Of a stretch of 64,000 nt of DNA, positions 248 through 15,724 are shown one piece after another. How positions within the stretch are numbered: the stretch's first letter is position 1; every line of letters starts with the position of its first letter. Location of the stretch: the IMG/VR virus record IMGVR_UViG_3300009370_000002; one strand, written 5' to 3'. This DNA is from a virus. Both the position numbers and the translations under genes were made by a program. Under the pieces are notes generated by a model. It was not told the origin of the DNA and ran no database searches. It was given only the letters and a program-made list of their open reading frames with translations.

Positions 248-301
248 AATTTAACCGCTTGAGCCGATTTGTCAAGGGAAGGAACGGACAGAAAATGTCC
301 G
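248..301 (-). promoter_or_regulatory. repeat promoter module 1: TTGACA-N16-TAAATT with CGGACA-N5-TGTCCG palindrome 10 bp upstream
   Basis: Plus-strand tgtcaa 270-275; palindrome 285-301. Confidence 0.7.
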
Positions 302-308
302 CTTAGTC

Positions 309-614
309 TTAGCTGCGGAGTTCCGACATGTCCTTCCAGTAGAAGTCGCCATCATCATCGTAACCATTCCAGCAAGTCTCTGGATAGCTGGTATCCTCAT
401 AATCCCCCAGGTCGTAAGACTCTGGATAGATTGCATCAAACAGTCTGTCAGTGTCTTCGGAGCTAAGCTCCAGAAGCTCATCAAAGTTGGCAAGGAAAGC
501 ATGGAAGTGTTGCCACTCTGGAACCAGCTTCCTGATTTGCTGGATATGCCAATCAGATAGGCGAGTGATAGAAGGGTTAGAAGCTGAGCGAACTGGGCAA
601 GAAATGACATCCAT
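309..614 (-). CDS. acidic hypothetical protein (101 aa)
   Basis: GGAG RBS 5 nt before ATG; preferred over the overlapping 272..649 frame. Confidence 0.6.
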   Translation of the reverse strand: MDVISCPVRSASNPSITRLSDWHIQQIRKLVPEWQHFHAFLANFDELLELSSEDTDRLFDAIYPESYDLGDYEDTSYPETCWNGYDDDGDFYWKDMSELRS

Positions 615-666
615 TTGAACTCCGAAGGAAAAGGGAAAAGCGAAAACATTTTGTTCTCATGTATAT

Positions 667-711
667 AATGTATCCCGTTCTGAATGATTTGTCACGGACA
701 GAAAATGTCCG
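667..711 (-). promoter_or_regulatory. repeat promoter module 2: CGGACA-N5-TGTCC-GTGACA-N17-TACATT
   Basis: Palindrome 695-711 abuts a near-canonical -35 (690-695); 17-bp spacer; -10 at 667-672. Confidence 0.8.
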
Positions 712-756
712 CTTTGCATATTTCTCCAGCTTGCCAGGTCCAGCGTAGCTGGGCTT

Positions 757-894
757 AGTTATGTCAAGTATTTGAGCCTTCCTTAGTTATGTCAAGTTTT
801 GACATTTCCCTGACATTCTGAGTTATGTCAAGTATTTGCGTAACGAAGTTACGTTATGTTGTTACGAAGTAACAAGAATGTTACGAATTGATCA
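757..894. repeat. iteron-like direct repeats AGTTATGTCAAGT x3, inverted TGACAT half-sites and GTAAC/GTTAC(GAAG) repeats
   Basis: Copies at 757-769, 785-797, 821-833; TGACAT at 800-805 and 811-816; non-coding context. Confidence 0.75.
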
Positions 895-1438
895 CGGCAA
901 AGCCCCAGACTCTACCATCACATTAGGGGAGTCCGGAGCTATGTCTATATTGGTTTGAGTTTGAACCTGTCTTTTGTTACTCGGTTGCCTGTATCAGTAT
1001 TCGAGGGCTTTTCATCCTCCGGTCTTATGTGGCATTGCTTTATGCTGAGGTTGCGGAAACAAATGGCTTGTTCTCAAATACGTAGTCCGCACACACGGAA
1101 AACGCACATAACACACACGAATTATACTGTTTTTGGTTGTTTTATGGCTTTTTAACGCACTTTTAACAGTGTTTTGCTTGACTTTTTGGGAGAAAGGGTT
1201 TGATTGACTCTATCTGTGACATACTGACTGAATATCATAATAACTAACCTCATTATTCATTAGCAATACTACAGAACACTTTGAAACCCAACAACCAGAA
1301 CCTATGATTTGTTTGCTTAAATGCTTGAATTCACACGCTTTTGCACTGATACGGCTAAGGGGTGTACCCCCGTAGGGTAGGAGGGTAGGGTAGTAGGGCA
1401 TACAGGCAGTCAGGGGCAGGGTAGCAGGTAACAAAATA

Positions 1439-1693
1439 TTATTTAATGATACTAAGGTTTTCATTAAGAGATACGAAGTCAATGTATACATCATGCTCAT
1501 CAAGTTCAAACCAGAATACATCACCACTACCATCTATTACCTGTATCCTCCACCACTCATAGTATTCACCTCCTGTTCTACCTGTTTCTGATTCATGCTC
1601 CTTATCCAATACCGTTGCATATCCTCCGGTAAAGCCTTTGCATCTAAGGAGCATCCCTATCTCTATGTCCTCTCCTTTAGCTACCTTACTCAT
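1439..1693 (-). CDS. SH3-like small hypothetical protein
   Basis: IGMLL...GYATVL...W...V pattern resembles the mini-protein family; overlaps the next gene at TAATG. Confidence 0.55.
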   Translation of the reverse strand: MSKVAKGEDIEIGMLLRCKGFTGGYATVLDKEHESETGRTGGEYYEWWRIQVIDGSGDVFWFELDEHDVYIDFVSLNENLSIIK

Positions 1694-2022
1694 TAACGAT
1701 ACCCTCTATTCGCTTTCTCTCTATGCTTCATAAGAAATTTATTTTCTTGTGTCTCGGATGCAAGGTGTTCATGAATGGCATCAGTGGTTTTGCAATCCCA
1801 TACCTTGCAATGCCTAATGTTCCTTGCCAGCCTTCGGGCTATAGCTAACGGGAGGTTTGATGATATGAAGCGTCCGGTTTGGATATGGGTTACATTCCAG
1901 CTATATGAACCCTCTTTGCCTTTCCTTCGGTTAACCATCAATGGATAGTAATGCTCAAAGCTTCCCTCTTCTGGTTCCATTATGTTATTGTTACTCGCTA
2001 CCATGTAAAAGCCTTTCTTCAT
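1693..2022 (-). CDS. hypothetical protein (109 aa)
   Basis: TAATG-coupled to neighbours; AGAGG RBS. Confidence 0.6.
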   Translation of the reverse strand: MKKGFYMVASNNNIMEPEEGSFEHYYPLMVNRRKGKEGSYSWNVTHIQTGRFISSNLPLAIARRLARNIRHCKVWDCKTTDAIHEHLASETQENKFLMKHREKANRGYR

Positions 2023-2312
2023 TATCGCACCTCTTTCAGTTGGATTTTGGTTAGTTGCCTATCGGCTCGGTTGTAACGTCTGCAAGCTTCCCTTAATGCC
2101 TGCTGTCCTCTCGTTAAATACCTCTTCTCTGTCTTGGCTGTTATCAGTTCTGAATAGTGTTTATTTATTTTGCTCATGTAGTCTCCATTAGTAGCGTGGT
2201 GCATATCGTTGCCTTCGAGTGTAAGCCTCACTTGAACCCCAAGAAGCTGAAGCCCTTCGGTACTCATCTTTCCAGCTATCTTCTGGTTCCCAGCCATAGC
2301 CTTTATCGGCAT
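2022..2312 (-). CDS. basic hypothetical protein (<=96 aa)
   Basis: GAGGT RBS; stop overlaps the next start; exact start uncertain. Confidence 0.45.
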   Translation of the reverse strand: MPIKAMAGNQKIAGKMSTEGLQLLGVQVRLTLEGNDMHHATNGDYMSKINKHYSELITAKTEKRYLTRGQQALREACRRYNRADRQLTKIQLKEVR

Positions 2313-2927: not shown

Positions 2928-2931
2928 GATT

Positions 2932-3323: not shown

Positions 3324-3367
3324 AATGTATGCTGTTCTGGTTCATTTGGGTAGGACAAATATTGTCC
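3324..3367 (-). promoter_or_regulatory. repeat promoter module 4
   Basis: -10 at 3324-29, -35 TACCCA at 3347-52, palindrome 3353-67. Confidence 0.85.
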
Positions 3368-3979: not shown

Positions 3980-4010
3980 AATGTATCTCGTTCGGGGGTA
4001 TCTGGGTAGG
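3980..4010 (-). promoter_or_regulatory. repeat promoter module 5 (TACCCA-N17-TACATT, palindrome absent)
   Basis: -10 at 3980-85, -35 at 4003-08; no GGACA/TGTCC upstream. Confidence 0.7.
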
Positions 4011-4280: not shown

Positions 4281-5480
4281 TTAGGGTTCTATCACTATCA
4301 CTCGTTCGTTTGTAGTGAAATATTGGGCACCTTTGCCCTCTGTATCAGTCATCCACATTCTTTGGCACTTGGATGGGATAGGCTTTGGAGCACACATATC
4401 GGTTAGGATGATATGCCCGTCGAATTGACGTTCATTGACATACTTGGTTGGTGCATTGAAGCAGGTTCCACCGCAGAGCACTCTATCCCAAGTGATACGC
4501 TTGCCTTTTTTCCAAACATAAACATGTTCTTCACCTACCTCAGTATCGAAGGGAACCACGGTAAACTCTGCATACTTGGCAAGGCTACCAAGCTCGGTAA
4601 AGAAGGCAGCAAGCATCTTGTCAGATACAGAACCTGACTGGTCGATAGAGATAGCTATCTTGGCAGTTCTGGTTACCTTCTTTCCAGCATGGATATAGGG
4701 AAACCGCTTGTTAATTCGTCGAACGGTGCTACGCTTGTTGGACTTCTGAGAAGTCTTAATGAAGTAGCGAAGAACCTTTCTCCAATCGACTTTGGGATTA
4801 ATCATATCCATAATCTTCTTACGAGTAGCAGAAGACACGGATCCCCAAGAGCCTCGACTGGATGCTTCCTTAGCTGCATCTTCTACAGCCTGTCGAAGAC
4901 GTTCTTTAGCCATAGCCTTAGTCTCGGCATCAGCTTCACCCCATCCACTGTGGTCATCGAGAGGTTGAGGGTTACCGCTTCCACCCTGCCCATCGCCAGG
5001 ATCTCCACCTTCTCCACCTTCACCCTCACCATCGTTTGGTTGCATATCGGGATCCTTTTGAAGCTCCTCAAAATACCACTCAGCAGACTTGCCGGATGGA
5101 TACTTTGCAAACTTATCCTTTCCAGGGATTAAAGCACCTTCTGGAAGCTTATCAGAGATATGACTGTTGATGGATAAGTCTGTAGCTATATTCCATAGCA
5201 TGGACATACCCTCTGGGGGTAGTCTGCCTGTAACATGCTCAAAGATGATATGGTAGAATTCGTGCATCAGAACACCGGATAAGTGATTGTCCTCAAGTCC
5301 TGCCATAAACTCTGGGTTATACACCATCTCGAATTGAGCGGTATCTTTGTTGAGCTTCACACCTGCTGTAGGTATGGCATTGGTTGCCATCTTGGTTATC
5401 CTTCGAGAGAGAGCAGCAAAGAAAGGCTCTTGTCGAAGGAGAGCAAAAGTATGAGCATTTAAATCAAATGGTTTTGTCAT
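4281..5480 (-). CDS. VWA-like domain protein with N-terminal HExxH metallopeptidase-like domain (DUF2201-type)
   Basis: HEFYH motif; MIDAS-like DQSGS; Gly/Asp-rich linker; adjacent to a MoxR-type ATPase. Confidence 0.85.
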   Translation of the reverse strand: MTKPFDLNAHTFALLRQEPFFAALSRRITKMATNAIPTAGVKLNKDTAQFEMVYNPEFMAGLEDNHLSGVLMHEFYHIIFEHVTGRLPPEGMSMLWNIATDLSINSHISDKLPEGALIPGKDKFAKYPSGKSAEWYFEELQKDPDMQPNDGEGEGGEGGDPGDGQGGSGNPQPLDDHSGWGEADAETKAMAKERLRQAVEDAAKEASSRGSWGSVSSATRKKIMDMINPKVDWRKVLRYFIKTSQKSNKRSTVRRINKRFPYIHAGKKVTRTAKIAISIDQSGSVSDKMLAAFFTELGSLAKYAEFTVVPFDTEVGEEHVYVWKKGKRITWDRVLCGGTCFNAPTKYVNERQFDGHIILTDMCAPKPIPSKCQRMWMTDTEGKGAQYFTTNERVIVIEP

Positions 5481-5506
5481 TGGGATTACTCCTTGGTTGT
5501 GTCTAT

Positions 5507-5550
5507 AATATAGCTCATTGCTCAGAGGTTGGGTAGGACATTAAATGTCC
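5507..5550 (-). promoter_or_regulatory. repeat promoter module 6
   Basis: -10 TATATT at 5507-12, -35 at 5530-35, palindrome 5536-50. Confidence 0.85.
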
Positions 5551-5759
5551 GTTTTCACCCTTCCCCTACATGCCTTGCGATTAGCTTCCCTCTTCTTGTC
5601 TTTATGGCTACCAGAACCAGACTTGAAGTGTGCAGCCACTGCTATCCAGTTACGCTGCTTAGGTTTATCATTCTTTCGTTTCTTTGGCTTGTTAAACATA
5701 CCAACTCCTGTATAATAGCTTGAAGGTCTAGGGGTTACAAATGGTTTATTGTTATTCAT
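5541..5759 (-). CDS. small basic hypothetical protein (72 aa)
   Basis: GGAGGT RBS; stop codon lies inside the module 6 palindrome. Confidence 0.65.
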   Translation of the reverse strand: MNNNKPFVTPRPSSYYTGVGMFNKPKKRKNDKPKQRNWIAVAAHFKSGSGSHKDKKREANRKACRGRVKTDI

Positions 5760-5769
5760 AAGTCACCTC

Positions 5770-6822
5770 CTACTTACGGTTCATGAGTTGAACGATGTGC
5801 ATATTAACCTTAGTACCATCCTTAGTGGTTGTACCGTGGAAACCTGCGATGTTCTGTGAACACTTAGCCTTTCCGATATGAGTCCAGATAGTCATTGCAA
5901 TCTCACTTGGTAGAGATACGAAGTACTCTGCAAGGTTAGTTAGCTGATTCTTACTCATAGGCTCGGCAAACAAGTCAACAGCTTTCATCTTCTCGATAAG
6001 AGCAAGGTGGTCGTTGTTAGCGAAGTCCTTGATAAGCTCGAATTTGCCATCGTCGATGATGTCAGTGACATTGACTTGACGTTTGTAGTTCTTAATGAAG
6101 TCATTAAGGGCTACTGAAGCTTCCATACCAACGAAAGCATGGCTAAGGTGATACAGTGTAGTACCAGATTCGATTTTATTCAAGCCACGAAGTGCCTTGT
6201 CAAGGCGAACCCAAGAGCGACGAGAAGGATAAACCTTGTTAGGCTCATACTCATCCTTATGCTCAAGGTGGCTATGATTCTGGTTAATGAAATCCCAAAG
6301 CTCAACAGAGACTTTGCTCTTTGCCCATGATAGCCAGTCTTCGACTGTAGGCTCTACATCGAACACAGTGTAACGATCAAGCTCTGCTGGATCCATTTCA
6401 CCGACTTGATACTGAGCACCGTGATCTCCACCATTAACAGCAGCAAAGATAAGAGTATCTGGATGCAGGACTTGCCCTGCAATCTTACGGCTATCGCATA
6501 GCTCAAAGATACCTTGACGGACTTCCATCGTAGCTCTATCAACTTCATCAAGGAAGAGAAGCACTGGCTTAGTGCAAGCAGTGTGCAACCATTCTGGTGC
6601 AAGCCACTTAGTGACACCTTTCTCGACTTTTGGCAAGCCAAGCAAATCACCCTCTGTCATCTGTGAAGCTCGACGCTCGACAACAGGCAAACCTAAGTCT
6701 TTTGCAGTCTGATATACAAGCTCGGATTTACCGATACCGTGCCTACCACGAATAAGTACAGGGTACTTAGCAAAGATGATGTGAGAGATTACTGAGTTGA
6801 ATGTTTGAAAATCAATAGCCAT
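5770..6822 (-). CDS. MoxR-type AAA+ ATPase
   Basis: Walker A GRHGIGKS, Walker B LFLDE, MDPAELDRY, PSRRSW. Confidence 0.88.
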   Translation of the reverse strand: MAIDFQTFNSVISHIIFAKYPVLIRGRHGIGKSELVYQTAKDLGLPVVERRASQMTEGDLLGLPKVEKGVTKWLAPEWLHTACTKPVLLFLDEVDRATMEVRQGIFELCDSRKIAGQVLHPDTLIFAAVNGGDHGAQYQVGEMDPAELDRYTVFDVEPTVEDWLSWAKSKVSVELWDFINQNHSHLEHKDEYEPNKVYPSRRSWVRLDKALRGLNKIESGTTLYHLSHAFVGMEASVALNDFIKNYKRQVNVTDIIDDGKFELIKDFANNDHLALIEKMKAVDLFAEPMSKNQLTNLAEYFVSLPSEIAMTIWTHIGKAKCSQNIAGFHGTTTKDGTKVNMHIVQLMNRK

Positions 6823-6870
6823 GATAGGACTCCAAGATTGTGGTTAAGGTTTCTGTTTGTTTGTATCTAT

Positions 6871-6914
6871 AATGTAATTAGTTATGTTCTGTTTGGGTAG
6901 GACATTTTCTGTCC
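6871..6914 (-). promoter_or_regulatory. repeat promoter module 7
   Basis: -10 at 6871-76, -35 at 6894-99, palindrome 6900-14. Confidence 0.85.
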
Positions 6915-7175: not shown

Positions 7176-7219
7176 AATATATGCTGTTTCAGTCTGTTTG
7201 GGTAGGACATTTTTTGTCC
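7176..7219 (-). promoter_or_regulatory. repeat promoter module 8
   Basis: -10 at 7176-81, -35 at 7199-7204, palindrome 7205-19. Confidence 0.85.
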
Positions 7220-7220: not shown

Positions 7221-7397
7221 TTATGAGATTCTTTTGAAATATTCTGGTTCCATCCATTTTTTCTCTGATCTGAAGTAGCGTCCATCATTAAGGAAAACCA
7301 CCAGATACATAACTCCCTTTCCTTGGAAGTCTTCTATCCTTGTTATGATACCAGTGCGTTGGTAGAAGTTATCCTTTACTAAATCACCTACTTTCAT
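7221..7397 (-). CDS. SH3/KOW-like mini-protein (58 aa, MKVGDLVKDNFYQRTGII...)
   Basis: Manually translated; below the ORF-track cutoff; ATGA coupling. Confidence 0.75.
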   Translation of the reverse strand: MKVGDLVKDNFYQRTGIITRIEDFQGKGVMYLVVFLNDGRYFRSEKKWMEPEYFKRIS

Positions 7398-7570
7398 GAT
7401 ACTACCTCTAAGTTGTCAGGGAAATTCCACGTTACTTCACCGCTCTCAGCCCAATAAATATCGCAGCAATGGGTATCATCTTCAATGTATAGGTTCACCA
7501 CGATGCCGATGCCCTTGGTGAGAAGAAATACCTTATCCTCTCTCATTCTTACTAAGTCACCTATCTTCAT
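7394..7570 (-). CDS. SH3/KOW-like mini-protein (58 aa, MKIGDLVRM...NLEVVS)
   Basis: Manually translated; GAGGT RBS. Confidence 0.75.
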   Translation of the reverse strand: MKIGDLVRMREDKVFLLTKGIGIVVNLYIEDDTHCCDIYWAESGEVTWNFPDNLEVVS

Positions 7571-7769
7571 TGATCACCTCGATTTCATCACCCCACAAGT
7601 CATCGTTTAAGCCATTCGGCCACAGTACCTTGTACAGGGGTTGGCGAGTACCACTGATTTCAATGATTATTCCGTACTCTTCGGGGGAATCATCAAGCTC
7701 AGTGTCTTTCATCCAAGGGTTGACTTGAACCCAGTCACCCTTTAGCTTTACTAAATCACCTACTTGCAT
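7557..7769 (-). CDS. SH3/KOW-like mini-protein (70 aa, MQVGDLVKL...IEVINEDR)
   Basis: Start reassigned to MQVG, which has a GGAGGT RBS. Confidence 0.75.
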   Translation of the reverse strand: MQVGDLVKLKGDWVQVNPWMKDTELDDSPEEYGIIIEISGTRQPLYKVLWPNGLNDDLWGDEIEVINEDR

Positions 7770-7930
7770 GGTGCTACCTCCAGATTGGACATTAAGGAAC
7801 CGACGATTTTGCCAGTGTTCATGAGGGCTATCTTCACGCATCTGATTACGTTAGGCCCTTCCACCACGATGGCAAGCTCACCTCCATCCCTGCAATATCG
7901 CTTAATCCTTACTAAGTCTCCAACTTTCAT
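7760..7930 (-). CDS. SH3/KOW-like mini-protein (56 aa, MKVGDLVRI...NLEVAPCK)
   Basis: Manually translated; first gene after module 9. Confidence 0.75.
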   Translation of the reverse strand: MKVGDLVRIKRYCRDGGELAIVVEGPNVIRCVKIALMNTGKIVGSLMSNLEVAPCK

Positions 7931-7998: not shown

Positions 7999-8668
7999 GT
8001 TTTTTCGTTTTGGGTACACGGTGCTTCTTTAGGGACTTCTCTATTACGGTTGTCACCATCGTTCCACCAACTTCCAAAAGCTCATATCGCTTGGTTCCAC
8101 CAAGCTTTTCGTTGTATACATGCGATTTGGTAATAGGCTTATTGCCGATGGTAATCACCATCCAAGAATCAACCTGTCGATGTCGAAAGCCGACATCAGC
8201 ATTAGCTCTGAGGCGAACCAAGTCACCTATAGCAAACTTGGGTTCTGCCTTATGGCTTTCCCATACGTTGTTGGCATACTCGTTGTCCATCATTCGTATG
8301 AAGTCTGAATAATCTGGTAGGTGGGTCTGCTTGCCTTCTATAAAAGCTTTGCAAAGGGTTGCTGTTGTTCGATAGTAGTGGGTATTAAGGTAGTAATCGC
8401 ATATCACTCGTACCTTTTCCCTGTACTCTTCGTCGTTAGCCAGCTTGACTTTCCAGTTGCGGAACCTCTCCATAGCTATGTCACCCAGAGAGTAGTATAT
8501 GGATGCTGCGAAGCTCTTCTGAGCCTGAGTTAGCTCTCTTTCTGTAGTCCTCTGAAATTCTATCATGCTTGTGAGTACCCTTGTATACTTTGGGTTACCC
8601 ATCTCCTCTGCTCTGCCCAGCATCACAGTCATTCTCTCTGGTGAGAAGTCAAAATCTGAAAGTTTCAT
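7991..8668 (-). CDS. hypothetical protein with fused C-terminal SH3/KOW-like domain (KFAIGDLVRL)
   Basis: Sole gene between modules 10 and 9; stop lies inside the palindrome. Confidence 0.75.
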   Translation of the reverse strand: MKLSDFDFSPERMTVMLGRAEEMGNPKYTRVLTSMIEFQRTTERELTQAQKSFAASIYYSLGDIAMERFRNWKVKLANDEEYREKVRVICDYYLNTHYYRTTATLCKAFIEGKQTHLPDYSDFIRMMDNEYANNVWESHKAEPKFAIGDLVRLRANADVGFRHRQVDSWMVITIGNKPITKSHVYNEKLGGTKRYELLEVGGTMVTTVIEKSLKKHRVPKTKKRT

Positions 8669-8693
8669 GATGTTTCTCCTTGGTTATGATAGT

Positions 8694-8737
8694 AATGTAT
8701 CATGCTCAGGGGTAGATGGGTAGGTCATTTTTTGTCC
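8694..8737 (-). promoter_or_regulatory. repeat promoter module 10 (TGACC half-site variant)
   Basis: -10 at 8694-99, -35 at 8717-22, palindrome 8723-37. Confidence 0.85.
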
Positions 8738-8940
8738 GATTTGAATTTTTTCAATTCTCTTCGATGGAATCTTGTGCTGCTTTCTTCTTTGCCATCTGCT
8801 CTGTACCAGTGGCATTGTATGGGATACTTGGAATAGTTTTCCCCTACCCAGACTACAAATCCCCAGCCTCCATAGCAAACATCGTTGTGCTGCCTTGACT
8901 TGCCATAAGCTGACAGTTGTACTAAATCACCTACTTTCAT
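8725..8940 (-). CDS. SH3/KOW-like mini-protein, LSxxGK subfamily
   Basis: MKVGDLVQLSAYGK...ELKKFKSDKK. Confidence 0.78.
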   Translation of the reverse strand: MKVGDLVQLSAYGKSRQHNDVCYGGWGFVVWVGENYSKYPIQCHWYRADGKEESSTRFHRRELKKFKSDKK

Positions 8941-9112
8941 CTTTACTCTCCTTCAAGTTTTCAATAAAGAATTTGCTTATCCATTCCTCTTCGCCCTCGT
9001 CTTTGTGTAGTGGGTCGTAATTCCAAACAACACAAACGCTGGTTCCACTCTCTTCTATAATAATGCCCACCGCCCCTGTTGGCTTGTGGGTTATAAGATC
9101 ACCTACTTGCAT
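8927..9112 (-). CDS. SH3/KOW-like mini-protein (61 aa)
   Basis: MQVGDLITH...GIII...V.W pattern. Confidence 0.78.
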   Translation of the reverse strand: MQVGDLITHKPTGAVGIIIEESGTSVCVVWNYDPLHKDEGEEEWISKFFIENLKESKDESR

Positions 9113-9270
9113 ACTACCTCCAGATACCTTTGGTGTTCCTCAAAGTAAACATGTCGTTCACCATCTATCCACTCGATTTCAACAGCATAGCCATCCTGCT
9201 CGGTATGCACAACTATGCCTGTGTATCCTTCGTCGGCATTGGTATATCTAACTAAGTCACCTACTTGCAT
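9103..9270 (-). CDS. SH3/KOW-like mini-protein (55 aa, MQVGDLVRY...YLEVVCK)
   Basis: Manually translated; first gene after module 11. Confidence 0.75.
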   Translation of the reverse strand: MQVGDLVRYTNADEGYTGIVVHTEQDGYAVEIEWIDGERHVYFEEHQRYLEVVCK

Positions 9271-9294
9271 TGTGTTCTCCTCGGTTATGTTAGT

Positions 9295-9338
9295 AATGTA
9301 TCATGGTGCAGGGGAGTTGGGTAGGACAAATTATGTCC
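9295..9338 (-). promoter_or_regulatory. repeat promoter module 11
   Basis: -10 at 9295-9300, -35 at 9318-23, palindrome 9324-38. Confidence 0.85.
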
Positions 9339-10197
9339 TATTTGCCCAATCCTCAATGTGACGAGATACCCTATCTTCATCCAACTTGTGGATACTGCGC
9401 TTCTTAACTAAGTAATCCCAAGCTTCACCGTATGAAGTCGTCCAGTTATCGGGCAAAGGAGCTTCAGACTTGCCAATGATTTTAGCAAGGTGCATACTGT
9501 TGTATCTACCACCCTTGTGTACGATAACCCTTTGAAGTTTGAAATCTTCTTTAACAAACTGATCAATAGAAATCTGCTGTTCTACTCCGTCAACCAAGGC
9601 ATTGATGGTGAAACGCTGTCCATATTTCTCATTCGTATCCCAGTTGCCGCTGAAGGCAGTGAATACGTTCACCGTATCCCAGTTGATGTGAGTAATCAAG
9701 CCGATATGATGTAGGGTTGTAGCATTTGCGCCCCAACCTTGCCTTTGAGTGACTTCGATGGCAGCACCAATGTCCAGCCCAAGCTCTTTGACAACGTATT
9801 TATGAACAGCCTTGCGATAGTTCTCATTAGCCTTCTTACAAAGCTTCAGAAACTTCTGCATTTCATCGCAGTTTCGACGATTGTGGCTTGGGTCACCGCA
9901 GAACCCACACTTAGGGGCAGAGCGTACCCTCTTGGTACCCTTCTTTGGAAGTGAGCTTTGATAGGCTACCAAATCCCTACACTTAGTGTACCATTCACCC
10001 CAATACTTAGGCTGCTTGAACCAGTGGCTTGAGGCAATACCTGTGGTATCGACTGGGATTTTCCGAACTGATAAGTATACCCAGTCCTCCTTGGCATGAG
10101 GGCAGTCTCTTCTATTGTGTCCAGACTTACGGCAATATCCACATGCTGATGTTCTTCTGCTGGAATATCCTGATTTACTGTTTTCAAAAATCTTCAT
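9331..10197 (-). CDS. double CCHC zinc-knuckle protein (288 aa)
   Basis: CGYCRKSGHNRRDC and CGFCGDPSHNRRNC (CX2CX4HX4C). Confidence 0.8.
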   Translation of the reverse strand: MKIFENSKSGYSSRRTSACGYCRKSGHNRRDCPHAKEDWVYLSVRKIPVDTTGIASSHWFKQPKYWGEWYTKCRDLVAYQSSLPKKGTKRVRSAPKCGFCGDPSHNRRNCDEMQKFLKLCKKANENYRKAVHKYVVKELGLDIGAAIEVTQRQGWGANATTLHHIGLITHINWDTVNVFTAFSGNWDTNEKYGQRFTINALVDGVEQQISIDQFVKEDFKLQRVIVHKGGRYNSMHLAKIIGKSEAPLPDNWTTSYGEAWDYLVKKRSIHKLDEDRVSRHIEDWANRT

Positions 10198-10226
10198 ATT
10201 TGTTCTCCGTTTGAGTTTGTACTTAT

Positions 10227-10270
10227 AATGTATCGGGTTAGGTACGAGTTGGGTAGGTCATTTTTTGTCC
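10227..10270 (-). promoter_or_regulatory. repeat promoter module 12
   Basis: -10 at 10227-32, -35 at 10250-55, palindrome 10256-70. Confidence 0.85.
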
Positions 10271-10485
10271 GGTTTGTATTTCTTCAATTCGTAGCGTTTG
10301 AATCTGCATGGGAAATTCTGAGTCATATCCGCTGACCACCACTCAACCAAGTAAGGGCTAAATCTTCTGCCGTATCTCGATCTTATCTCTTTGATGATGC
10401 CGAAGCCACCCATCACCCGTTGTCGCCAATTGGCACTCATCTTCTTTCCTGCTGCTGATAACTGTATTATATCACCTACTTTCAT
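10258..10485 (-). CDS. SH3/KOW-like mini-protein, LSxxGK subfamily
   Basis: MKVGDIIQLSAAGK...ELKKYKPDKK. Confidence 0.78.
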   Translation of the reverse strand: MKVGDIIQLSAAGKKMSANWRQRVMGGFGIIKEIRSRYGRRFSPYLVEWWSADMTQNFPCRFKRYELKKYKPDKK

Positions 10486-10562
10486 TAGACTTTCTCCTTA
10501 GTGCGCTGTGAATGAGACTTGCATAGATAAAGGTACACATCACCACCATAGTGGCGATGCCC

Positions 10563-10967
10563 TTAACTACCTCTCTTTTTCGCATATTCTTTCGCTTTGG
10601 CTTTTCTTGCTTCATCGATTTCACGCTCCTGTTGTATCATTTTGGATACCCAGCGGTTTCCATATTCGTTTTCATAGTCTGCAACGTACTCATTGTCCAT
10701 AACAAGTATCATCTTGCCTTGGAGGAACTTCTTACGAAGTCTGTACCCTGCTATGAGGAATTGCTCACCCACTGGTACGAGTTGATCATCGCTCATAAGA
10801 ACCTTGCAGATAGCATAAGGCATAGCCTTCCACTTTCGCTTGTACTCACCTGTCTTCTTGTCCAGACGAGGCTTTGTAAGGTACTTGCGAAACGCTACCT
10901 TTTCAACGATAGAGGTTACATTGCCTTGGGCAAAAAATACTGTTTGATCCTTTTTCAAATAAGCCAT
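10563..10967 (-). CDS. basic hypothetical protein (134 aa)
   Basis: AGGAG RBS after module 13. Confidence 0.7.
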   Translation of the reverse strand: MAYLKKDQTVFFAQGNVTSIVEKVAFRKYLTKPRLDKKTGEYKRKWKAMPYAICKVLMSDDQLVPVGEQFLIAGYRLRKKFLQGKMILVMDNEYVADYENEYGNRWVSKMIQQEREIDEARKAKAKEYAKKRGS

Positions 10968-10998
10968 GAGTTATCTCCTTGTCTCTGGTTATGTATAT

Positions 10999-11042
10999 AA
11001 TATATCCGGTTAGGTAGTGCCTGGGTAGGTCATTTTTTGTCC
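10999..11042 (-). promoter_or_regulatory. repeat promoter module 13
   Basis: -10 at 10999-11004, -35 at 11022-27, palindrome 11028-42. Confidence 0.85.
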
Positions 11043-11266
11043 GGTTTTTTGAATCTCTTTAGCTCATAAGCCTTGAAGGGCTGGCGGAAGTTCTCCATGT
11101 CCTCATTCCACCACTCACACTGGATGGGATAGGTTCTGCCATTTCTTTGGGGCTTTCTTCCAACTTTCTTCACAAAGCCAAATCCACCTCTGCACCTCCA
11201 ATTACCACTTCTCTTCTTACCTGCTGATGACAGCATTACCAAGTCTCCTTTCTTAAACTTTTTCAT
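11030..11266 (-). CDS. SH3/KOW-like mini-protein, LSxxGK subfamily (78 aa)
   Basis: MKKFKKGDLVMLSSAGK...ELKRFKKPDKK; start reassigned. Confidence 0.78.
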   Translation of the reverse strand: MKKFKKGDLVMLSSAGKKRSGNWRCRGGFGFVKKVGRKPQRNGRTYPIQCEWWNEDMENFRQPFKAYELKRFKKPDKK

Positions 11267-11418
11267 TGTATCACCTCCAATAGTTTTGTTTGAATCCATT
11301 CCCTTCGCCCATTAATCCAAAGCACGTTACAATAATGTTCATTGTGCTTCCTTATAATCGTGCCAAGAAGTCCATTAGGAGGATATGTTGCCTGCCTTAC
11401 TAAGTCACCTACTTGCAT
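11263..11418 (-). CDS. SH3/KOW-like mini-protein (51 aa)
   Basis: MQVGDLVRQ...LLEVIQ. Confidence 0.75.
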   Translation of the reverse strand: MQVGDLVRQATYPPNGLLGTIIRKHNEHYCNVLWINGRREWIQTKLLEVIQ

Positions 11419-11588
11419 ACTGCCTCCAAGTCTGCGCCCTTTAGATAATAATCTGTCTGATAGATGCGGAAATCGCCATTGTGCCAATGTACCGAAATTT
11501 CTCTGATGTTCTCACGGAGCCGGTATATCTTGGTGACAATCCCAAAATCTTTTCTGTCGGGGTGTGTTACTAAATCGCCAACTTTCAT
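11409..11588 (-). CDS. SH3/KOW-like mini-protein (59 aa, MKVGDLVTH...DLEAVCK)
   Basis: Manually translated; first gene after module 14. Confidence 0.75.
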   Translation of the reverse strand: MKVGDLVTHPDRKDFGIVTKIYRLRENIREISVHWHNGDFRIYQTDYYLKGADLEAVCK

Positions 11589-11613
11589 GGTGTTTCTCCT
11601 TGGTTGTGTCTAT

Positions 11614-11657
11614 AATATAGCACAGTCAGGGGTAGGTGGGTAGGTCATTTTTTGTCC
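11614..11657 (-). promoter_or_regulatory. repeat promoter module 14
   Basis: -10 at 11614-19, -35 at 11637-42, palindrome 11643-57. Confidence 0.85.
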
Positions 11658-11857
11658 GATTGGGAGGCATTGATCCATTCTGTGGATGAGCAATCCGGTT
11701 TCAGATGGGAAGGGTGAAAGACGGCTGTAACGTCCATCGCAGGGAAGTATATCTCAAATCTTCCTCCATGTTGTCCGATTATGATGCCATGTGAATCGTA
11801 TCCAAAGCCTTTCATTCTTATGGTTGGTTCTACCAAGTCTCCAATTTTAAACTTCAT
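11645..11857 (-). CDS. SH3/KOW-like mini-protein (70 aa)
   Basis: MKFKIGDLVE...SDKK; stop inside the palindrome. Confidence 0.75.
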   Translation of the reverse strand: MKFKIGDLVEPTIRMKGFGYDSHGIIIGQHGGRFEIYFPAMDVTAVFHPSHLKPDCSSTEWINASQSDKK

Positions 11858-12014
11858 TGATCACCTTCATGTCACTGCTATGACAATAACGACAACAGCC
11901 ACTGGTAAAAGCTACTAACCAACAAGTTCCGACTGTTGGTTGTGCTCGACTCTCTCTTATTATTATGCCTTTCTCTCTACTATCCCAATCATATATTAAA
12001 TCACCTATTTTCAT
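11847..12014 (-). CDS. SH3/KOW-like mini-protein (55 aa, MKIGDLIYD...MKVINEV)
   Basis: Manually translated. Confidence 0.72.
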   Translation of the reverse strand: MKIGDLIYDWDSREKGIIIRESRAQPTVGTCWLVAFTSGCCRYCHSSDMKVINEV

Positions 12015-12310
12015 TGTATCACCTCAAACCAATCGCCTATGGGGTGCCACAGGACAATATTCTCATTCGCTCGTAACATGTCGTCATTCCTTCTGAAAAG
12101 GCGACTAAAGCTTCCTGACAAACCTTCCCAGTCAGCACCAATTGCACGTTCGATTTTAGGCCCCACTTCGGGAAGCATCACCCACATAAGCTGAACGCAG
12201 TTATGTTCGTGTAAGGGAGATTTCGATCTATTGTCTAATCCGACAACCAAAGCCATAGACTTGTGCTTTTGTCCTGCCACATTGTAACAAACTAAATCAC
12301 CTATTTTCAT
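12011..12310 (-). CDS. SH3/KOW-like protein with insertion (99 aa)
   Basis: MKIGDLVCY...WFEVIQ. Confidence 0.75.
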   Translation of the reverse strand: MKIGDLVCYNVAGQKHKSMALVVGLDNRSKSPLHEHNCVQLMWVMLPEVGPKIERAIGADWEGLSGSFSRLFRRNDDMLRANENIVLWHPIGDWFEVIQ

Positions 12311-12334
12311 TGTGTTCTCCTTAGCTATGTTAGT

Positions 12335-12378
12335 AATGTATCATAGTAGGTAGTGGGTGGGTAGGTCATTTTTTGTCC
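12335..12378 (-). promoter_or_regulatory. repeat promoter module 15
   Basis: -10 at 12335-40, -35 at 12358-63, palindrome 12364-78. Confidence 0.85.
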
Positions 12379-12566
12379 GGCATCCACTCTTTCAAAGATT
12401 CCTCGTCAATCCATCGTTCATGAGCCTCATCGTCAAGCGTCCTGACAACATACACAAAACCTCCAAAGGTATGGTTTATAATCCTCACAACGATGGCTGG
12501 AAATGGACGTTTAAGTTTGCCGCTCCAGCCAATGGCAACCAAGTCACCTACTTCAAATTGCTGCAT
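12366..12566 (-). CDS. SH3/KOW-like mini-protein (66 aa)
   Basis: FEVGDLV...PDKK. Confidence 0.75.
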   Translation of the reverse strand: MQQFEVGDLVAIGWSGKLKRPFPAIVVRIINHTFGGFVYVVRTLDDEAHERWIDEESLKEWMPDKK

Positions 12567-12727
12567 ATTGCCTCCACTGCATCTTGGGTTACCTCTTCTC
12601 TGAAACCGTCAAGCCACTCCACAACAACAGTGTCACCCCAGTAGTCATCATAAGGTGGAACCTCAAGAACAATTCCAAATCGCTCAAGATTGATACCTCT
12701 AACCTTTACCAAATCACCGACTTTCAT
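12548..12727 (-). CDS. SH3/KOW-like mini-protein (59 aa, MKVGDLVKVRG...)
   Basis: Manually translated. Confidence 0.75.
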   Translation of the reverse strand: MKVGDLVKVRGINLERFGIVLEVPPYDDYWGDTVVVEWLDGFREEVTQDAVEAICSNLK

Positions 12728-12899
12728 TGATCACCTCGCACTCTTGTTCTACATAATCCTTCCCGAACCATGCGTCCATTCCATTATCAAAGCAATAAAG
12801 CCTATAAGGGTTTCTCTTTCGTCTGTCACCTATTTCAATAATAACAGCATAGCCATCCTCTGGCCATCTCTTGTCTCGTATTAAGTCACCTACTTTCAT
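12714..12899 (-). CDS. SH3/KOW-like mini-protein (61 aa)
   Basis: MKVGDLIRD...CEVINESR. Confidence 0.75.
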   Translation of the reverse strand: MKVGDLIRDKRWPEDGYAVIIEIGDRRKRNPYRLYCFDNGMDAWFGKDYVEQECEVINESR

Positions 12900-13039
12900 A
12901 CTGCCTCCACATACCATTTCAAGCACCATGAAGACTCCCCATCAGCCCAATAGCAAAATACTTGTGCTCTGCTGTTGTCAATCTCCATGATGATCCCGTG
13001 AGTTCCATCTCTGTAAATAACCAAATCACCTACTTGCAT
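12896..13039 (-). CDS. SH3/KOW-like mini-protein (47 aa)
   Basis: MQVGDLVIY...YVEAV. Confidence 0.72.
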   Translation of the reverse strand: MQVGDLVIYRDGTHGIIMEIDNSRAQVFCYWADGESSWCLKWYVEAV

Positions 13040-13182
13040 TTCAGCCTCCTTAGCCACTCTCTGGGGTATCCGGTTCTCAAATTGCCGCTGCTGGAAAATA
13101 ATATATTGCACCAGCCAGGCCCCATCTCTACAATAAGGACGATATTTCCTCTTACGGTTTCTGCTAAATCACCAACATTCAT
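13030..13182 (-). CDS. SH3/KOW-like mini-protein (50 aa, MNVGDLAET...)
   Basis: Manually translated; first gene after module 16. Confidence 0.72.
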   Translation of the reverse strand: MNVGDLAETVRGNIVLIVEMGPGWCNILFSSSGNLRTGYPREWLRRLKCK

Positions 13183-13206
13183 TGTGTTCTCCTCGGTTAT
13201 GTTAGT

Positions 13207-13250
13207 AATGTATCATGGGGGGCACTACTTGGGTAGGTCAAATTTTGTCC
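13207..13250 (-). promoter_or_regulatory. repeat promoter module 16
   Basis: -10 at 13207-12, -35 at 13230-35, palindrome 13236-50. Confidence 0.85.
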
Positions 13251-14025
13251 ACTTTTGAATTAACTCTTCCAGCATCTCAAAATCTTTGTTTTTCATTGAG
13301 ATATTGTCAAAAAACCATTCCATTGCGCTGTCATCGCCAATGGAGTACCACTCATCGGGGAGAGGGGCAGAGTCTCCATTAAGGCTCAGTACTTCATAAA
13401 ACTGCCACCCTGAGCGATTAGGTATCAAATCCTTTGACCAATCAGCTTTCAATCTGGAAACAATAACTTTGATAGCCTCTCCTTCTACCAATATTTCTAT
13501 CGCTGGAACACCTGAGAACAGCCCACCTTTAGCATACGAACAAAAGACATTTAGCTTGTTTTTATTAAAGCCCGACACTATTCCTACTGATGAACCCTCA
13601 CTGTACGGATAGGCACTCTCAATTAACCCAGAAGGTACACTAACGAGAGAACCAATGCCAAAACCATGTCTATTTGCTTCATTTACAAACTGTCTCCTCC
13701 AATTCTCGTTAGCTTTTTCAACCTTGGCTTTGAATTTTGTCAATTTCCGACACCGATTTCTCTTATGCTTCACAGAATTACAAAAAGAGCACCTTGCTTT
13801 GCGCCTTTTTTGCTTAGGCTTAGAAGCTTTCTTTTGCCTCCGAAGTGTTTCTTGCTTTGCTTTCCTCTCGGAATAAGTTGGAAAATAGTTTCCACCGTAC
13901 TTGGTAACCTGATCACAATACTTTTTGTACACTACATTAACAGCAGGGCAAGAAGTGATATTGTGACCATGAATCCCACAAAGGCCACACTTTACAGTGC
14001 CCTTTCCCCATTCATATCCCTTCAT
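13225..14025 (-). CDS. double CCHC zinc-knuckle protein (266 aa), paralog of 9331..10197
   Basis: CGLCGIHGHNITSC and CSFCNSVKHKRNRC; shared KANENxR..V......(D/G)IG segment. Confidence 0.8.
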   Translation of the reverse strand: MKGYEWGKGTVKCGLCGIHGHNITSCPAVNVVYKKYCDQVTKYGGNYFPTYSERKAKQETLRRQKKASKPKQKRRKARCSFCNSVKHKRNRCRKLTKFKAKVEKANENWRRQFVNEANRHGFGIGSLVSVPSGLIESAYPYSEGSSVGIVSGFNKNKLNVFCSYAKGGLFSGVPAIEILVEGEAIKVIVSRLKADWSKDLIPNRSGWQFYEVLSLNGDSAPLPDEWYSIGDDSAMEWFFDNISMKNKDFEMLEELIQKWTKFDLPK

Positions 14026-14267
14026 TTTATCACCCCTACAGACACAAGCTTGCCATCTGAAATAGTTCCGTACACCCCCTCTATCGGGGTAGGCTCTCCT
14101 CTGTTTTGAGCCTCTACGAGGTTCTTTATGTCTTGTTCTGTCACCTCTGCGCTGAGTGTGGCACTTACGAAATCGTCAGGAGTACCCTCCCAGTATAGTG
14201 CGTTGCCTATCCATGTCTCTCTTATAAAGAGAAGTGCTTCTCTGATTGCTTCTATCTTATTGTTCAT
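14022..14267 (-). CDS. hypothetical protein (81 aa)
   Basis: ATGA-coupled on both sides. Confidence 0.65.
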   Translation of the reverse strand: MNNKIEAIREALLFIRETWIGNALYWEGTPDDFVSATLSAEVTEQDIKNLVEAQNRGEPTPIEGVYGTISDGKLVSVGVIK

Positions 14268-14446
14268 GCTGCCTCCAATTCATCTATTGAATAAACGTAT
14301 TCTTCACCATCATTGCAAAGAACATCATATAAATCGTTGCCGTCAAAGTCCATGATAATGCCATAGTCATCACCAAAGGCGATATATGCCCCCTCGGGGC
14401 CACCCTCTTTATAGTGTCCTAACCTTACTAAGTCTCCTACTTGCAT
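14264..14446 (-). CDS. SH3/KOW-like mini-protein (60 aa)
   Basis: MQVGDLVRL...ELEAA. Confidence 0.75.
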   Translation of the reverse strand: MQVGDLVRLGHYKEGGPEGAYIAFGDDYGIIMDFDGNDLYDVLCNDGEEYVYSIDELEAA

Positions 14447-14613
14447 ACTACCTCCAGTTCCCAAGACTCTGTCCACATGTCGTCGCACATATCGCAGATC
14501 CAGCTAATGAAGTATATGGTTCTCTTTGTGAGAATGTCAGGTGCTACCTCGACTATCACACCCAGAACTTCATGAGGGTCGCCTTTTAGCTTTACTAAAT
14601 CGCTGACTTTCAT
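14437..14613 (-). CDS. SH3/KOW-like mini-protein (58 aa, MKVSDLVKL...ELEVVCK)
   Basis: Manually translated; first gene after module 17. Confidence 0.75.
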   Translation of the reverse strand: MKVSDLVKLKGDPHEVLGVIVEVAPDILTKRTIYFISWICDMCDDMWTESWELEVVCK

Positions 14614-14638
14614 AACGAATCTCCTTGGTTATGTAAGT

Positions 14639-14682
14639 AATGTATCCTATTCTGGCTTAGGTGGGTAGGACATTTTTTGTCC
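14639..14682 (-). promoter_or_regulatory. repeat promoter module 17
   Basis: -10 at 14639-44, -35 at 14662-67, palindrome 14668-82. Confidence 0.85.
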
Positions 14683-15003
14683 TCTTTTGGTTTTTGTCTT
14701 CTTATCCTTCTTTTTGTCACCCTTCTTATGCTCTGGTTTCGTTCGTTTTGGCTTTCGGGGTGGCTTCCTGCGCTTCGGGGGAGGACGCTTCATTCTTGGT
14801 GGAGCCTTCTTGTACCTTGGTGGGCGGTGCTTTATAATCACCCTCTTCTTTTCTCTCTTTATAATCACCTGTCTTATTATCACTGGCTCTGGATTAGGCT
14901 CAATATAGACATTCTGGTAGTCCTCCATAGGTATGGGAGTAGGACTAACAACTTTGATGACGCAACCTGTGCTTATCAGAGCAAGTATCATGATTCTTAT
15001 CAT
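14647..15003 (-). CDS. putative lipoprotein with Pro/Lys/Arg-rich tail
   Basis: MIRIMILALISTGC: signal peptide plus lipobox-like Cys. Confidence 0.6.
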   Translation of the reverse strand: MIRIMILALISTGCVIKVVSPTPIPMEDYQNVYIEPNPEPVIIRQVIIKREKKRVIIKHRPPRYKKAPPRMKRPPPKRRKPPRKPKRTKPEHKKGDKKKDKKTKTKRGQKMSYPPKPE

Positions 15004-15012
15004 TTGTTTCTC

Positions 15013-15186
15013 CTATTTGAAATTCTTTCTGAAATATTCGTATGCCTTTTGTGCTATCTGCTTCGTTTCATATAACATCAATGGTTGTTCTTTACGAACC
15101 TTAATGGCATACAGTCCAACATCACCTCGTTCAAGTTCGGGATATTCGGATAAATGATTTTTTGTTACTTTGAATGGTTTAAGCAT
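15013..15186 (-). CDS. small hypothetical protein (57 aa)
   Basis: GGAG RBS; start reassigned to MLKPF. Confidence 0.55.
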   Translation of the reverse strand: MLKPFKVTKNHLSEYPELERGDVGLYAIKVRKEQPLMLYETKQIAQKAYEYFRKNFK

Positions 15187-15472
15187 CTCCACTCTCCTTT
15201 GCAAGTATTATAGTGTCTATATAGTTTCTTGGAACGAATAATCTTATGACTCTCCACCCCATAAACTTGTCCGGTAGTTGTTTTTTCCATTTGAATTTTG
15301 ATGGATCGGCAGTGTGTTCTGTTTCAACAATGGCACAAAGGTGCGCCCCAGTACCATCGCTTTCAAATCTTGCGTAATACCTATTGTCAGTACACTCAAC
15401 AAGCTCTTTCATGAGAGCCTTAACTGCTTCCTCCTTTGGAGCTTTCGCTCCTGCCCAGTATATATTTGCCAT
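15179..15472 (-). CDS. hypothetical protein (97 aa)
   Basis: Start MANIYW with AAGGA RBS. Confidence 0.55.
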   Translation of the reverse strand: MANIYWAGAKAPKEEAVKALMKELVECTDNRYYARFESDGTGAHLCAIVETEHTADPSKFKWKKQLPDKFMGWRVIRLFVPRNYIDTIILAKESGDA

Positions 15473-15665
15473 GTTTGTATCCTTTGGTTGTGATAGTTGC
15501 AAGTTCATATTTATAATGTATGGTTGGCTGTACCTCTCCAACCCACTGTACGAGTACAAGGCCAGGATTACCTTCCAAGCCAGTTTCTGTAATGATGCCA
15601 TAGGTGTTAGCCCACTGAGGCATGGTTTCTTGGTCAGAGTAGACAACTAAATCTCCTTTTTTCAT
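15420..15665 (-). CDS. SH3/KOW-like mini-protein
   Basis: MKKGDLVVY...YGII...VQW. Confidence 0.72.
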   Translation of the reverse strand: MKKGDLVVYSDQETMPQWANTYGIITETGLEGNPGLVLVQWVGEVQPTIHYKYELATITTKGYKHGKYILGRSESSKGGSS

Positions 15666-15680
15666 TTGTGTTCTTCTCTT

Positions 15681-15724
15681 AATGTATTATGATGAGTACC
15701 ACTTGGGTAGGTCATTTTTTGTCC
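15681..15724 (-). promoter_or_regulatory. repeat promoter module 18
   Basis: -10 at 15681-86, -35 at 15704-09, palindrome 15710-24. Confidence 0.85.

Follow-up and report, generated by a model that had tools for sequence, protein, structure and literature searches.

A conserved promoter-like cassette with a dyad and a TACCCA box in the probable accessory region of an uncultured marine T4-like phage

Genomic setting of the array

The stretch of DNA analyzed here, called the window throughout, comprises 64,000 nucleotides (64 kb) of a virus (IMG/VR record IMGVR_UViG_3300009370_000002). It carries an array of repeated, promoter-like modules between 0.2 and 15.7 kb, in most of which a short inverted repeat (dyad) directly adjoins a TACCCA hexamer at the -35 position. 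The large open reading frames (ORFs) of the window all lie on the minus strand. The window codes for a DnaE-type polymerase, GroEL, a ribonucleotide reductase subunit, a DnaB-like helicase, a RecA/UvsX-like protein, a tail sheath, and a T4 baseplate protein, and no tRNA genes were found in it. Megablast of the window against 50,697 phage records returned no match, and the closest DnaE in those records is at most 32% identical, leaving this phage without a close isolate.

As the first-pass annotation of this DNA had proposed, the motif was also sought in related phage contigs. A search of IMG/VR with the dyad and TACCCA only, with no requirement for a -10 box, led to four relatives (G001 to G004), which are ~70 to 78% identical to the window in conserved genes. 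G001 is 185.6 kb long and 92% complete, and the other three are fragments. The T4-like portal (gp20 family) and T4-type large terminase encoded by G001 indicate that the phage is an uncultured marine “far-T4” myovirus; its replicase is of the DnaE type, not gp43.

The pattern TACCCA-N17-TAYATT has 16 matches in the window, all on the minus strand, compared with 0.01 expected from dinucleotide-preserving shuffles of the 64 kb. The palindrome GGACA-N5-TGWCC occurs at 17 places (27 strand-matches; 0.13 expected), and it immediately adjoins TACCCA in 15 of the 16 sites, the exception being the site at 3980 to 4008. Both observations had been made in the first-pass annotation; every one of its 16 sites is present, far beyond chance, and the pattern count bears out the adjoining palindrome. 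A weight matrix derived from the 16 sites gives 37 to 74 bits at 17 places, and nothing else in the 64 kb exceeds 12 bits (shuffle maximum, 4.8 bits). The extra copy that it retrieves, at 667 to 710, consists of the dyad and GTGACA-N17-TACATT. This is one of two further copies that had been listed, and it has the same geometry as the others (667 to 695). The second, at 248 to 275, does not: it reads TTGACA-N16-TAAATT, and its dyad (286 to 300) lies 10 bp upstream instead of adjoining the -35 hexamer. The array amounts to 17 or 18 copies, with none elsewhere in the 64 kb. The genes behind the modules are mostly small and have no Pfam match. The array (248 to 15724) is probably the hyperplastic (accessory) region of a marine T4-like myovirus, with ~55 accessory genes.

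Anatomy of the module

The anatomy was derived from an alignment of the 16 window copies and from one of 216 nonredundant copies drawn from the window, the four IMG/VR relatives, and 108 marine metagenome stretches. Positions are numbered from a conserved C/T-A step at -1/+1, predicted from the sequence to be the start and found in 93% of the 216 copies. Upstream to downstream, the consensus has AAA at -55 to -53, C at -51, the dyad GGWCA-n-WWW-n-TGWCC at -50 to -36 (centered at -43), the TACCCA box at -35 to -30, a 17-bp spacer, a -10 box of TAYATT at -12 to -7, and A at -6. The spacer has G at -14 in 87% of the 216 copies and TG at -15/-14 in 51%. Past the predicted start come AACCAAGGAG, a Shine-Dalgarno sequence, and, ~18 nucleotides (nt) on, an ATG. 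The search pattern itself fixed T-12, A-11, and T-7.

The center of the dyad (-44 to -42) is A or T in 214 to 216 of the 216 copies, most commonly within AAAAA. The three C residues of the box, at -33, -32, and -31, are each present in at least 97% of copies, and TACCCA agrees with TTGACA at only 3 of 6 positions. All 17 of the modules face a Shine-Dalgarno sequence and start codon, typically 16 to 28 nt past the predicted start, with longer leaders of 42 to 57 nt in three. The modules fit into gaps of ~55 to 65 bp, so that the dyad usually extends into the end of the gene before it. Each site thus resembles a promoter placed ahead of a short operon, and promoter activity is predicted from that layout. 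The first-pass annotation had overlooked the extended -10, the upstream stop codons that lie within the dyad, and the location of seven modules before paralogous genes.

Conservation across copies and relatives

The four relatives yield 31 further modules, and the metagenome scan yields the 108 marine stretches mentioned above. In G003 and G004, the spacers and flanks have diverged to unrelated A/T-rich sequence, while the dyad, TACCCA, and the 17-bp spacing are kept; the -10 boxes there, found with no -10 requirement, are TAGATT, TACTAT, TATAAT, or TAGAAT, i.e., TAnnnT. The distinct copies over all loci number 281; in a search that put no constraint on the -35 hexamer, 235 of them have TACCCA there, and most of the remainder are one base off. 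The reverse comparison gives a similar picture: of the 216 distinct TACCCA-N17-TAYAYT sites, which were gathered without regard to the dyad, 215 have a dyad with no more than one mismatch in its eight fixed positions, and the sole dyadless case is the window site at 3980 to 4008. The spacer is 17 bp long in 194 of 196 distinct copies with both dyad and TACCCA.

It could be argued that such an array is a relic of tandem duplication, and seven of the 17 modules indeed front paralogous MKVGDLV genes and have a common spacer sequence. However, the other modules front unrelated genes, including those for a MoxR-like AAA_5 ATPase, a DUF2201 metallopeptidase/VWA protein, and CCHC-knuckle proteins, and across the 216 nonredundant copies and divergent genomes the functional blocks are invariant while the spacers are free. 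This block-wise conservation in divergent relatives rules out a pure duplication relic. Judged by its conservation, the module is a real, strongly selected promoter cassette.

The cassettes have been rearranged between genomes. In G001 the modules and dyads are restricted to 151.3 to 165.3 kb of the 185.6 kb, and the cassette order ABCDEFGHIJ of the window becomes ABGJECFHDI, whereas the flanking genes are colinear. One block of homology between the window and G001 begins 10 bp upstream of a dyad, with breakpoints placed at coarse resolution. The repeated cassettes look like joints for operon duplication and reshuffling among related phages.

The dyad as a probable protein site

A second form of the same alternative holds that the dyad is an RNA or DNA hairpin, such as a terminator, an attenuator, or a processing site. 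Perfect dyads do fold at approximately -7 kcal/mol, some copies resemble weak terminators on the opposite strand, and the stem-loops of the early-promoter stem-loop (PeSL) cassettes of T4-type phages are terminators (PMC2839356). However, the central pair of the arms (-48/-38) is A-T in 107 copies, A·A in 89, T-A in 10, and T·T in 5; it is noncomplementary in ~45%, and its covariation is not significant (Fisher P = 0.18). The TGACC variants fold at -0.6 and -1.1 kcal/mol, no more stably than shuffled sequences. There is no T-run after the dyad on the coding strand, and the terminator-like matches on the plus strand are the dyads themselves, read on the noncoding strand. The lack of covariation, the failure of imperfect copies to fold, and the missing coding-strand T-run rule out the hairpin or terminator reading. 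Taken together, duplication relics or hairpins are a very improbable account of the module and are largely refuted.

Since the central pair is unpaired in ~45% of copies, the dyad is conserved as a sequence and not as a hairpin. We infer that the conserved 5-bp arms, which flank an A/T center at a distance of one helical turn from each other, form a site for a dimeric DNA-binding protein. This agrees with one part of the first-pass annotation, which placed a dimeric phage factor on the palindrome: the dyad behaves as a protein site, and its center at -43 is at a class II-type position. Such a factor would probably be phage encoded.

Many dyads also serve the upstream gene. Among the TGACC variants, 79 of 116 have a half-site in which TGA is the stop codon of an upstream ORF that is open for at least 40 codons, and in 42 TGTCC copies a TAA in the A/T center of the dyad is the upstream stop instead. 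In the window, TGA stops lie inside the proximal half-site at 8725 to 8727, 10258 to 10260, 11030 to 11032, 11645 to 11647, 12366 to 12368, and 15712 to 15714. This double use explains much of the T/A polymorphism at -38.

A second promoter class in the same genome

Gaps above 15.8 kb contain TTGAC(A/T)-N16-18-TAnnnT with no dyad, often with the same G-n-TAtATT-ATA -10 region, in agreement with the first-pass annotation, which had described TTGACA/TTGACT promoters lacking the palindrome above 16 kb. Matches to this pattern above 15.8 kb number 17 on the minus strand and 5 on the plus strand, compared with 7.6 expected in total. They precede the gene at 16112, GroEL (promoter at 21007 to 21034), the genes at 24450 and 28012, DnaE, the genes at 39139 and 43430, and the WYL_2/SSB region (46452 to 46480), as well as the ribonucleotide reductase and helicase genes. 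A canonical TTGACA-N17-TATATT promoter without a dyad, at 16139 to 16167 on the minus strand, lies immediately upstream of the array, where one promoter class gives way to the other. Host polymerase evidently recognizes TTGACA. The presence of canonical TTGACA promoters in the same genome marks the TACCCA modules as a separate promoter class, and the claim that such a class covers the accessory region stands, the modules being confined to it both in the window and in the 185.6-kb relative.

The -10 region common to both classes points to the same sigma domain 2. This bears on the proposal that a phage alternative sigma factor or a phage RNA polymerase recognizes the whole module, with TACCCA as its -35. 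The very strong conservation of both blocks and of their spacing is typical of alternative-sigma promoters, but the TAnnnT/G-n-TAtATT -10 is that of the canonical class, and the 92%-complete G001 has no match to Sigma70_r2 (PF04542; E ≤ 1) or to the RNA polymerase beta domain PF00562. Sigma70_r4 (PF04545) has no match at E ≤ 1 in any of the four relatives. The only PF00940 match in G001 (E = 0.0012), a candidate for a phage RNA polymerase, is the large terminase gene and was rejected. The T4-type late sigma factor gp55, moreover, reads only a -10-like box (PMC1524935). The phage sigma option, which the first-pass annotation had left open, is weakened by the host sigma70-type -10 and by these negative results, and we consider it quite improbable.

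A canonical TTGACA promoter at 46903 to 46931 (minus strand) has a spacer and -10, CACTGAAACAGGATACATT, that are nearly the same as those of a module subfamily, GACTGAAACAGCATATATT; the two promoter heads may have been exchanged on a common chassis.

The dyad adjoins a -35 hexamer in ~270 distinct contexts, in almost all of which the hexamer is TACCCA and in three of which it is GTGACA or TTGTCA. In an alternative placement, exactly 10 bp separate it from a downstream TTGACA or TCGACA with an N16 spacer (at 300 in the window, at three places in G001, and in other contigs). A few cases with offsets of 3 and 5 bp match less well and look fortuitous, two of them being the same dyad on the opposite strand. 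The dyad centers of the two placements, at -43 and approximately -52, are on the same helix face relative to the -35 hexamer, and this helical phasing suggests a protein that touches RNA polymerase.

The hybrids also bear on a different account, in which the modules are ordinary PeSL-type early promoters: unmodified host polymerase would fire through the extended -10 and the A-rich, UP-like dyad center, and the dyad and TACCCA would be a later shutoff operator or a recombination target. The TG at -15/-14 in 51% of copies and the G at -14 in 87% fit such use, the commonest dyad center, AAAAA, resembles the proximal subsite of the UP-element consensus, and the hybrids keep the dyad beside near-canonical -35 boxes that would need no activator. 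Repressors, on the other hand, usually act on core promoter elements, whereas the dyad at -50 to -36 is clear of them. TACCCA is much more invariant than a dispensable -35 would be, the TG of the extended -10 is missing in about half of the copies, and the consensus TTGACA promoters of the genome would win host polymerase first. There is precedent in that the PeSLs of RB49/phi1, T4/PST, and nt-1/KVP40 are early promoters before hyperplastic-region ORFans, with a -35 consensus for each lineage (PMC2839356, PMC4122927), and in that the -35 of T4 early promoters is GTTTAC (PMC1524935). On balance, we regard this account as rather unlikely.

Individual modules and neighboring genes

All modules of the window are on the minus strand. 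Module 1 (15681 to 15724; dyad GGACAAAAAATGACC and TACCCA-N17-TACATT) stands before an MKKGDLV gene (15665-15420). The next (14639 to 14682; dyad and TACCCA-N17-TACATT) precedes 14613-14437 and downstream genes, and that at 13207 to 13250 precedes 13182-13030 and four more mini-genes. The module at 12335 to 12378 fronts 12310-12011 and downstream genes, and the TGA in its proximal half-site is the stop of gene 12566-12366. A module with a TG-extended TATATT -10 (11614 to 11657) lies before 11588-11409, and the one at 10999 to 11042, whose cassette is placed differently in G001, lies before 10967-10563 (134 amino acids [aa]). The module at 9295 to 9338 serves 9270-9103 and downstream genes; that at 8694 to 8737, before 8668-7991 (225 aa), has the top matrix score of 73.6 bits. 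Next come modules at 7955 to 7998, before four MKVGDLV mini-genes (7930-7221), and at 7176 to 7219, before 7153-6920 (77 aa), with an orthologous module in G001. Around 7221 to 15900 there are in all ~21 paralogous mini-genes (47 to 99 aa) that start with M(K/Q)(V/I)GDLV, most of which overlap by 4 to 14 nt in operons; seven of them are the first gene behind a module.

The module at 10227 to 10270 precedes a gene for a 288-aa protein (10197-9331) with an N-terminal CCHC-type zinc-knuckle motif, CGYCRKSGHNRRDCPH. A second module-driven ORF, at 13225 to 14025 (266 aa; minus strand, as is the first), has in this reading a subthreshold Pfam zf-CCHC_2 match at residues 12 to 27. The modules at 6871 to 6914 (42-nt leader) and 5507 to 5550 front the genes for the MoxR-like AAA_5 ATPase (6822-5770; 350 aa) and the DUF2201 metallopeptidase/VWA protein (5480-4281; 399 aa), respectively; these form a conserved pair (4281 to 6822), each with its own module, that is colinear with G001.

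The dyadless TACCCA-N17-TACATT site (3980 to 4008) is inside or beside a small ORF (4110-3955) and before 3953-3660. It is followed by modules at 3324 to 3367, before 3292-3077, and at 2884 to 2927, before 2820-2188 with a C/T-rich leader of ~57 nt. The hybrid at 667 to 710, in which the dyad adjoins GTGACA-N17-TACATT, has a 46-nt leader and precedes 614-309. The last element, at 248 to 300, has the second architecture (dyad-N10-TTGACA-N16-TAAATT), seen three times in G001, and precedes 216-43 (57 aa). The long leaders (2820 to 2877, 614 to 660, and 6822 to 6864, minus strand), of which two of three are C/T rich, compare with a usual leader of ~18 nt and may serve leader-based control. The hybrid promoters of G001 have a common start, ATATACATGA(A/G)AACAAAC. 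The 101-aa protein behind the GTGACA hybrid (309 to 614, minus strand) is acidic, strongly so in its C-terminal half, and could act as a DNA mimic or bind polymerase; locus L074 has an orthologue of it that is 79% identical.

A gap of ~490 bp (720 to 1210, minus strand) with no convincing gene separates the array from the two hybrid promoters. It contains three copies of ACTTGACATAACT(C/A)AG spaced 33 to 38 bp apart and a cluster of TTCGTAAC, ACGTAAC, and TTCGTTACG repeats, which could be origin iterons, a promoter cluster, or sites for another protein. Outside the array, an 89-aa protein with a C-terminal hydrophobic helix (19115 to 19384, minus strand) is 83 to 91% identical across the relatives, compared with 45 to 65% for its neighbors, and judged by these values is under unusually strong constraint for its size.

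Proposed mechanism and the search for a regulator

The reading that we favor, with a probability of roughly 0.6, is that host polymerase with its primary sigma factor works at the modules together with one or more dedicated factors, probably phage encoded and dimeric, that read the dyad and TACCCA. The host enzyme would recognize the downstream half, (T)G-n-TAYATT at -15 to -7, with the 17-bp spacer and the C/T-A start. The invariant TACCCA would take the -35 position, and the 21-bp upstream element of dyad and TACCCA would be read by the sequence-specific factor or factors. A phage-specified dimer on the dyad would replace recognition of the -35 by sigma region 4, in the manner of class II activators or sigma appropriation. 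The ~55 accessory genes would then be one coregulated class, apart from the replication genes with their canonical TTGACA promoters. That the modules are active promoters, that a factor exists and where it comes from, that it activates and does not repress, and when it acts are inferred, and the factor-dependent “temporal switch” that had been proposed for these sites is plausible.

Several points weigh against this reading. About half of the copies are TG extended and could fire without a -35 contact, in which case the upstream element might serve repression or tuning rather than activation. Because the motif itself was used to gather the metagenome copies, the apparent invariance at the pattern positions is inflated. 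The paralogous genes and common spacers mean that part of the copy number reflects tandem duplication and that the copies are not all independent, and in many copies the dyad reaches into the 3′ end of the preceding gene, so that coding constraint contributes some of the conservation. Finally, no regulator has emerged from the homology searches, which did not extend to the ~130 kb of the phage's own genome outside the window: MotA/MotCF (PF09158), AsiA (PF09010), and Mor/C (PF08765) have no match at E ≤ 1 in the four relatives, and for 40 small window proteins searched at E ≤ 0.05, no known DNA-binding regulator is among the 25 Pfam families listed of 32 matched.

The only nucleic-acid-type match among the Pfam families listed for these 40 proteins is a subthreshold zinc knuckle, and PHROGs added thioredoxin, GroES, a baseplate wedge subunit, and one unnamed family. 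The first-pass annotation had likewise seen no clear cognate regulator in the window and had named the product of 25152 to 25481 as a ribbon-helix-helix (RHH)-like candidate, which the present analysis neither confirms nor excludes. By eye on the alignment, its N-terminal pattern is compatible with RHH. The AlphaFold model is unusable (pLDDT, 46), a PDB profile search with the protein gave no match, and leads from the Atlas are weak RHH ones only (0.90 to 0.91). Its presence in all four relatives is uninformative because of synteny. A 73-aa protein behind the canonical promoter at 16139 to 16167 has faint HU-like matches (E = 0.07) and was not found in the stretches of G001 to G003 that were searched.

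That no phage regulator was detected would also fit a host transcription factor on the dyad, with accessory expression following the physiological state of the host. Host dimers of the CRP/FNR type and similar ones use 5-bp half-sites one helical turn apart, centered near -43, as here. We know of no host-factor consensus that GGWCA-N5-TGWCC matches, however, and the composite element, TACCCA included, is absent from 185,579 prokaryote species genomes except for 2 chance matches, which have no homology to the phage and give no host clue. Because TACCCA was also required, that scan says nothing on the dyad alone. We judge a host factor to be improbable and retain a dedicated, probably phage-encoded factor as the preferred reading.

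Comparison with known systems

The closest precedent, overlooked in the first-pass annotation, is found in the PeSLs, cassettes of early promoter and stem-loop that are concentrated in the hyperplastic regions of T4-type phages before ORFans (Arbiol et al. 2010, PMC2839356; Comeau et al. 2014, PMC4122927). Their -35 is TTGACA in RB49/phi1, TTTACW in T4/PST, and TTGYVH in nt-1/KVP40; the stem-loop is just upstream of the promoter in PST and nt-1, and nt-1 also has PmSLs, on a Mot box (PMC2839356, PMC4122927). Recombination between PeSLs shuffles the ORFans that they flank (PMC2839356, PMC4122927). Like these, our modules are repeated cassettes of ~90 to 100 bp in the hyperplastic region of a T4-like genome before ORFan operons, and the unit runs in the same way from an upstream stop codon through inverted repeat, N17, and TAnnnT -10 to Shine-Dalgarno sequence and ATG. 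The consensus is again lineage specific and the order is shuffled, here between the window and G001, and PmSLs show that an activator box can stand in for the -35. The differences are that the -35 is an invariant TACCCA, neither sigma70-like (TTGACA, TTTACW, TTGYVH) nor a Mot box; that the inverted repeat has only 5 + 5 bp at one fixed position, with the center unpaired in ~45%, no T-run, and no terminator character; and that the same genome also has canonical promoters, a class that lacks the repeat. No relevant paper came up in literature searches for the literal motifs (TACCCA; GGACA/TGTCC). The module is a lineage-specific variant of the known PeSL/PmSL kind, and the specific module is undescribed as far as the literature searches reach. 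It extends the PeSL idea in that the “stem-loop” part is a sequence-specific site whose proximal half-site doubles as the upstream stop codon.

T4 early promoters, which are strong and work with host polymerase alone, have an A-rich -40 to -44 region besides their GTTTAC -35 (PMC1524935). They resemble the modules in having many near-identical copies before small novel ORFs, conservation upstream of the -35, and an A-rich tract (-45 to -41 in the modules) (PMC1524935). Unlike them, the modules have G/C-rich dyad arms around the A/T tract, and TACCCA matches TTGACA at 3 of 6 positions, compared with 5 of 6 for T4 early promoters in our own alignment. N4-type hairpin promoters and those of single-subunit RNA polymerases differ in that PF00562 has no match in G001 and the hairpin is not conserved.

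The promoters of phage Mu read by Mor/C and lambda PRM under cI share with the modules a dimer site at a poor -35, centered here at -43 and in Mu Pm and lambda PRM near -42 to -43.5. Unlike the Mu system, the relatives have no detectable Mor/C family protein, the half-sites are unrelated, and there are ~18 copies per genome as cassettes.

In function, the modules seem closer to PmSLs and T4 middle promoters than to PeSLs. The MotA/AsiA-dependent middle promoters of T4 combine a sigma70-type -10, often TGn extended, with a phage-specific box that replaces the -35 at a fixed distance, and they stand apart as a class from the sigma70-consensus promoters that the phage also has, as the modules do (PMC1524935). 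They differ in their box, (a/t)3TGCTTtA, which is followed by N11-13 and centered at -30, whereas TACCCA occupies -35 to -30 with a 17-bp spacer and an adjoining dyad. No motA or asiA homologue was found in the four relatives or among the families listed for the small window proteins. MotA and AsiA are missing from most T4-like phages that do not belong to the T-even group, and little is understood of how these phages separate their transcription classes (PMC1524935).

In this marine clade, two promoter heads appear on one -10 chassis, TTGACA for replication genes and TACCCA with the dyad for accessory genes. The clean signature over more than 200 copies offers a precise DNA bait for the regulator and a marker of the accessory cassettes of the clade in marine metagenomes. 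We tentatively raise the possibility, itself doubtful, that TACCCA and the dyad are the target of a new activator that works by sigma appropriation or in the class II manner and has no relation to MotA/AsiA or Mor; it would run a distinct temporal class for accessory genes in a widespread marine T4-like clade. If so, it would be a second, independent “middle-mode” solution in T4-like phages without motA.

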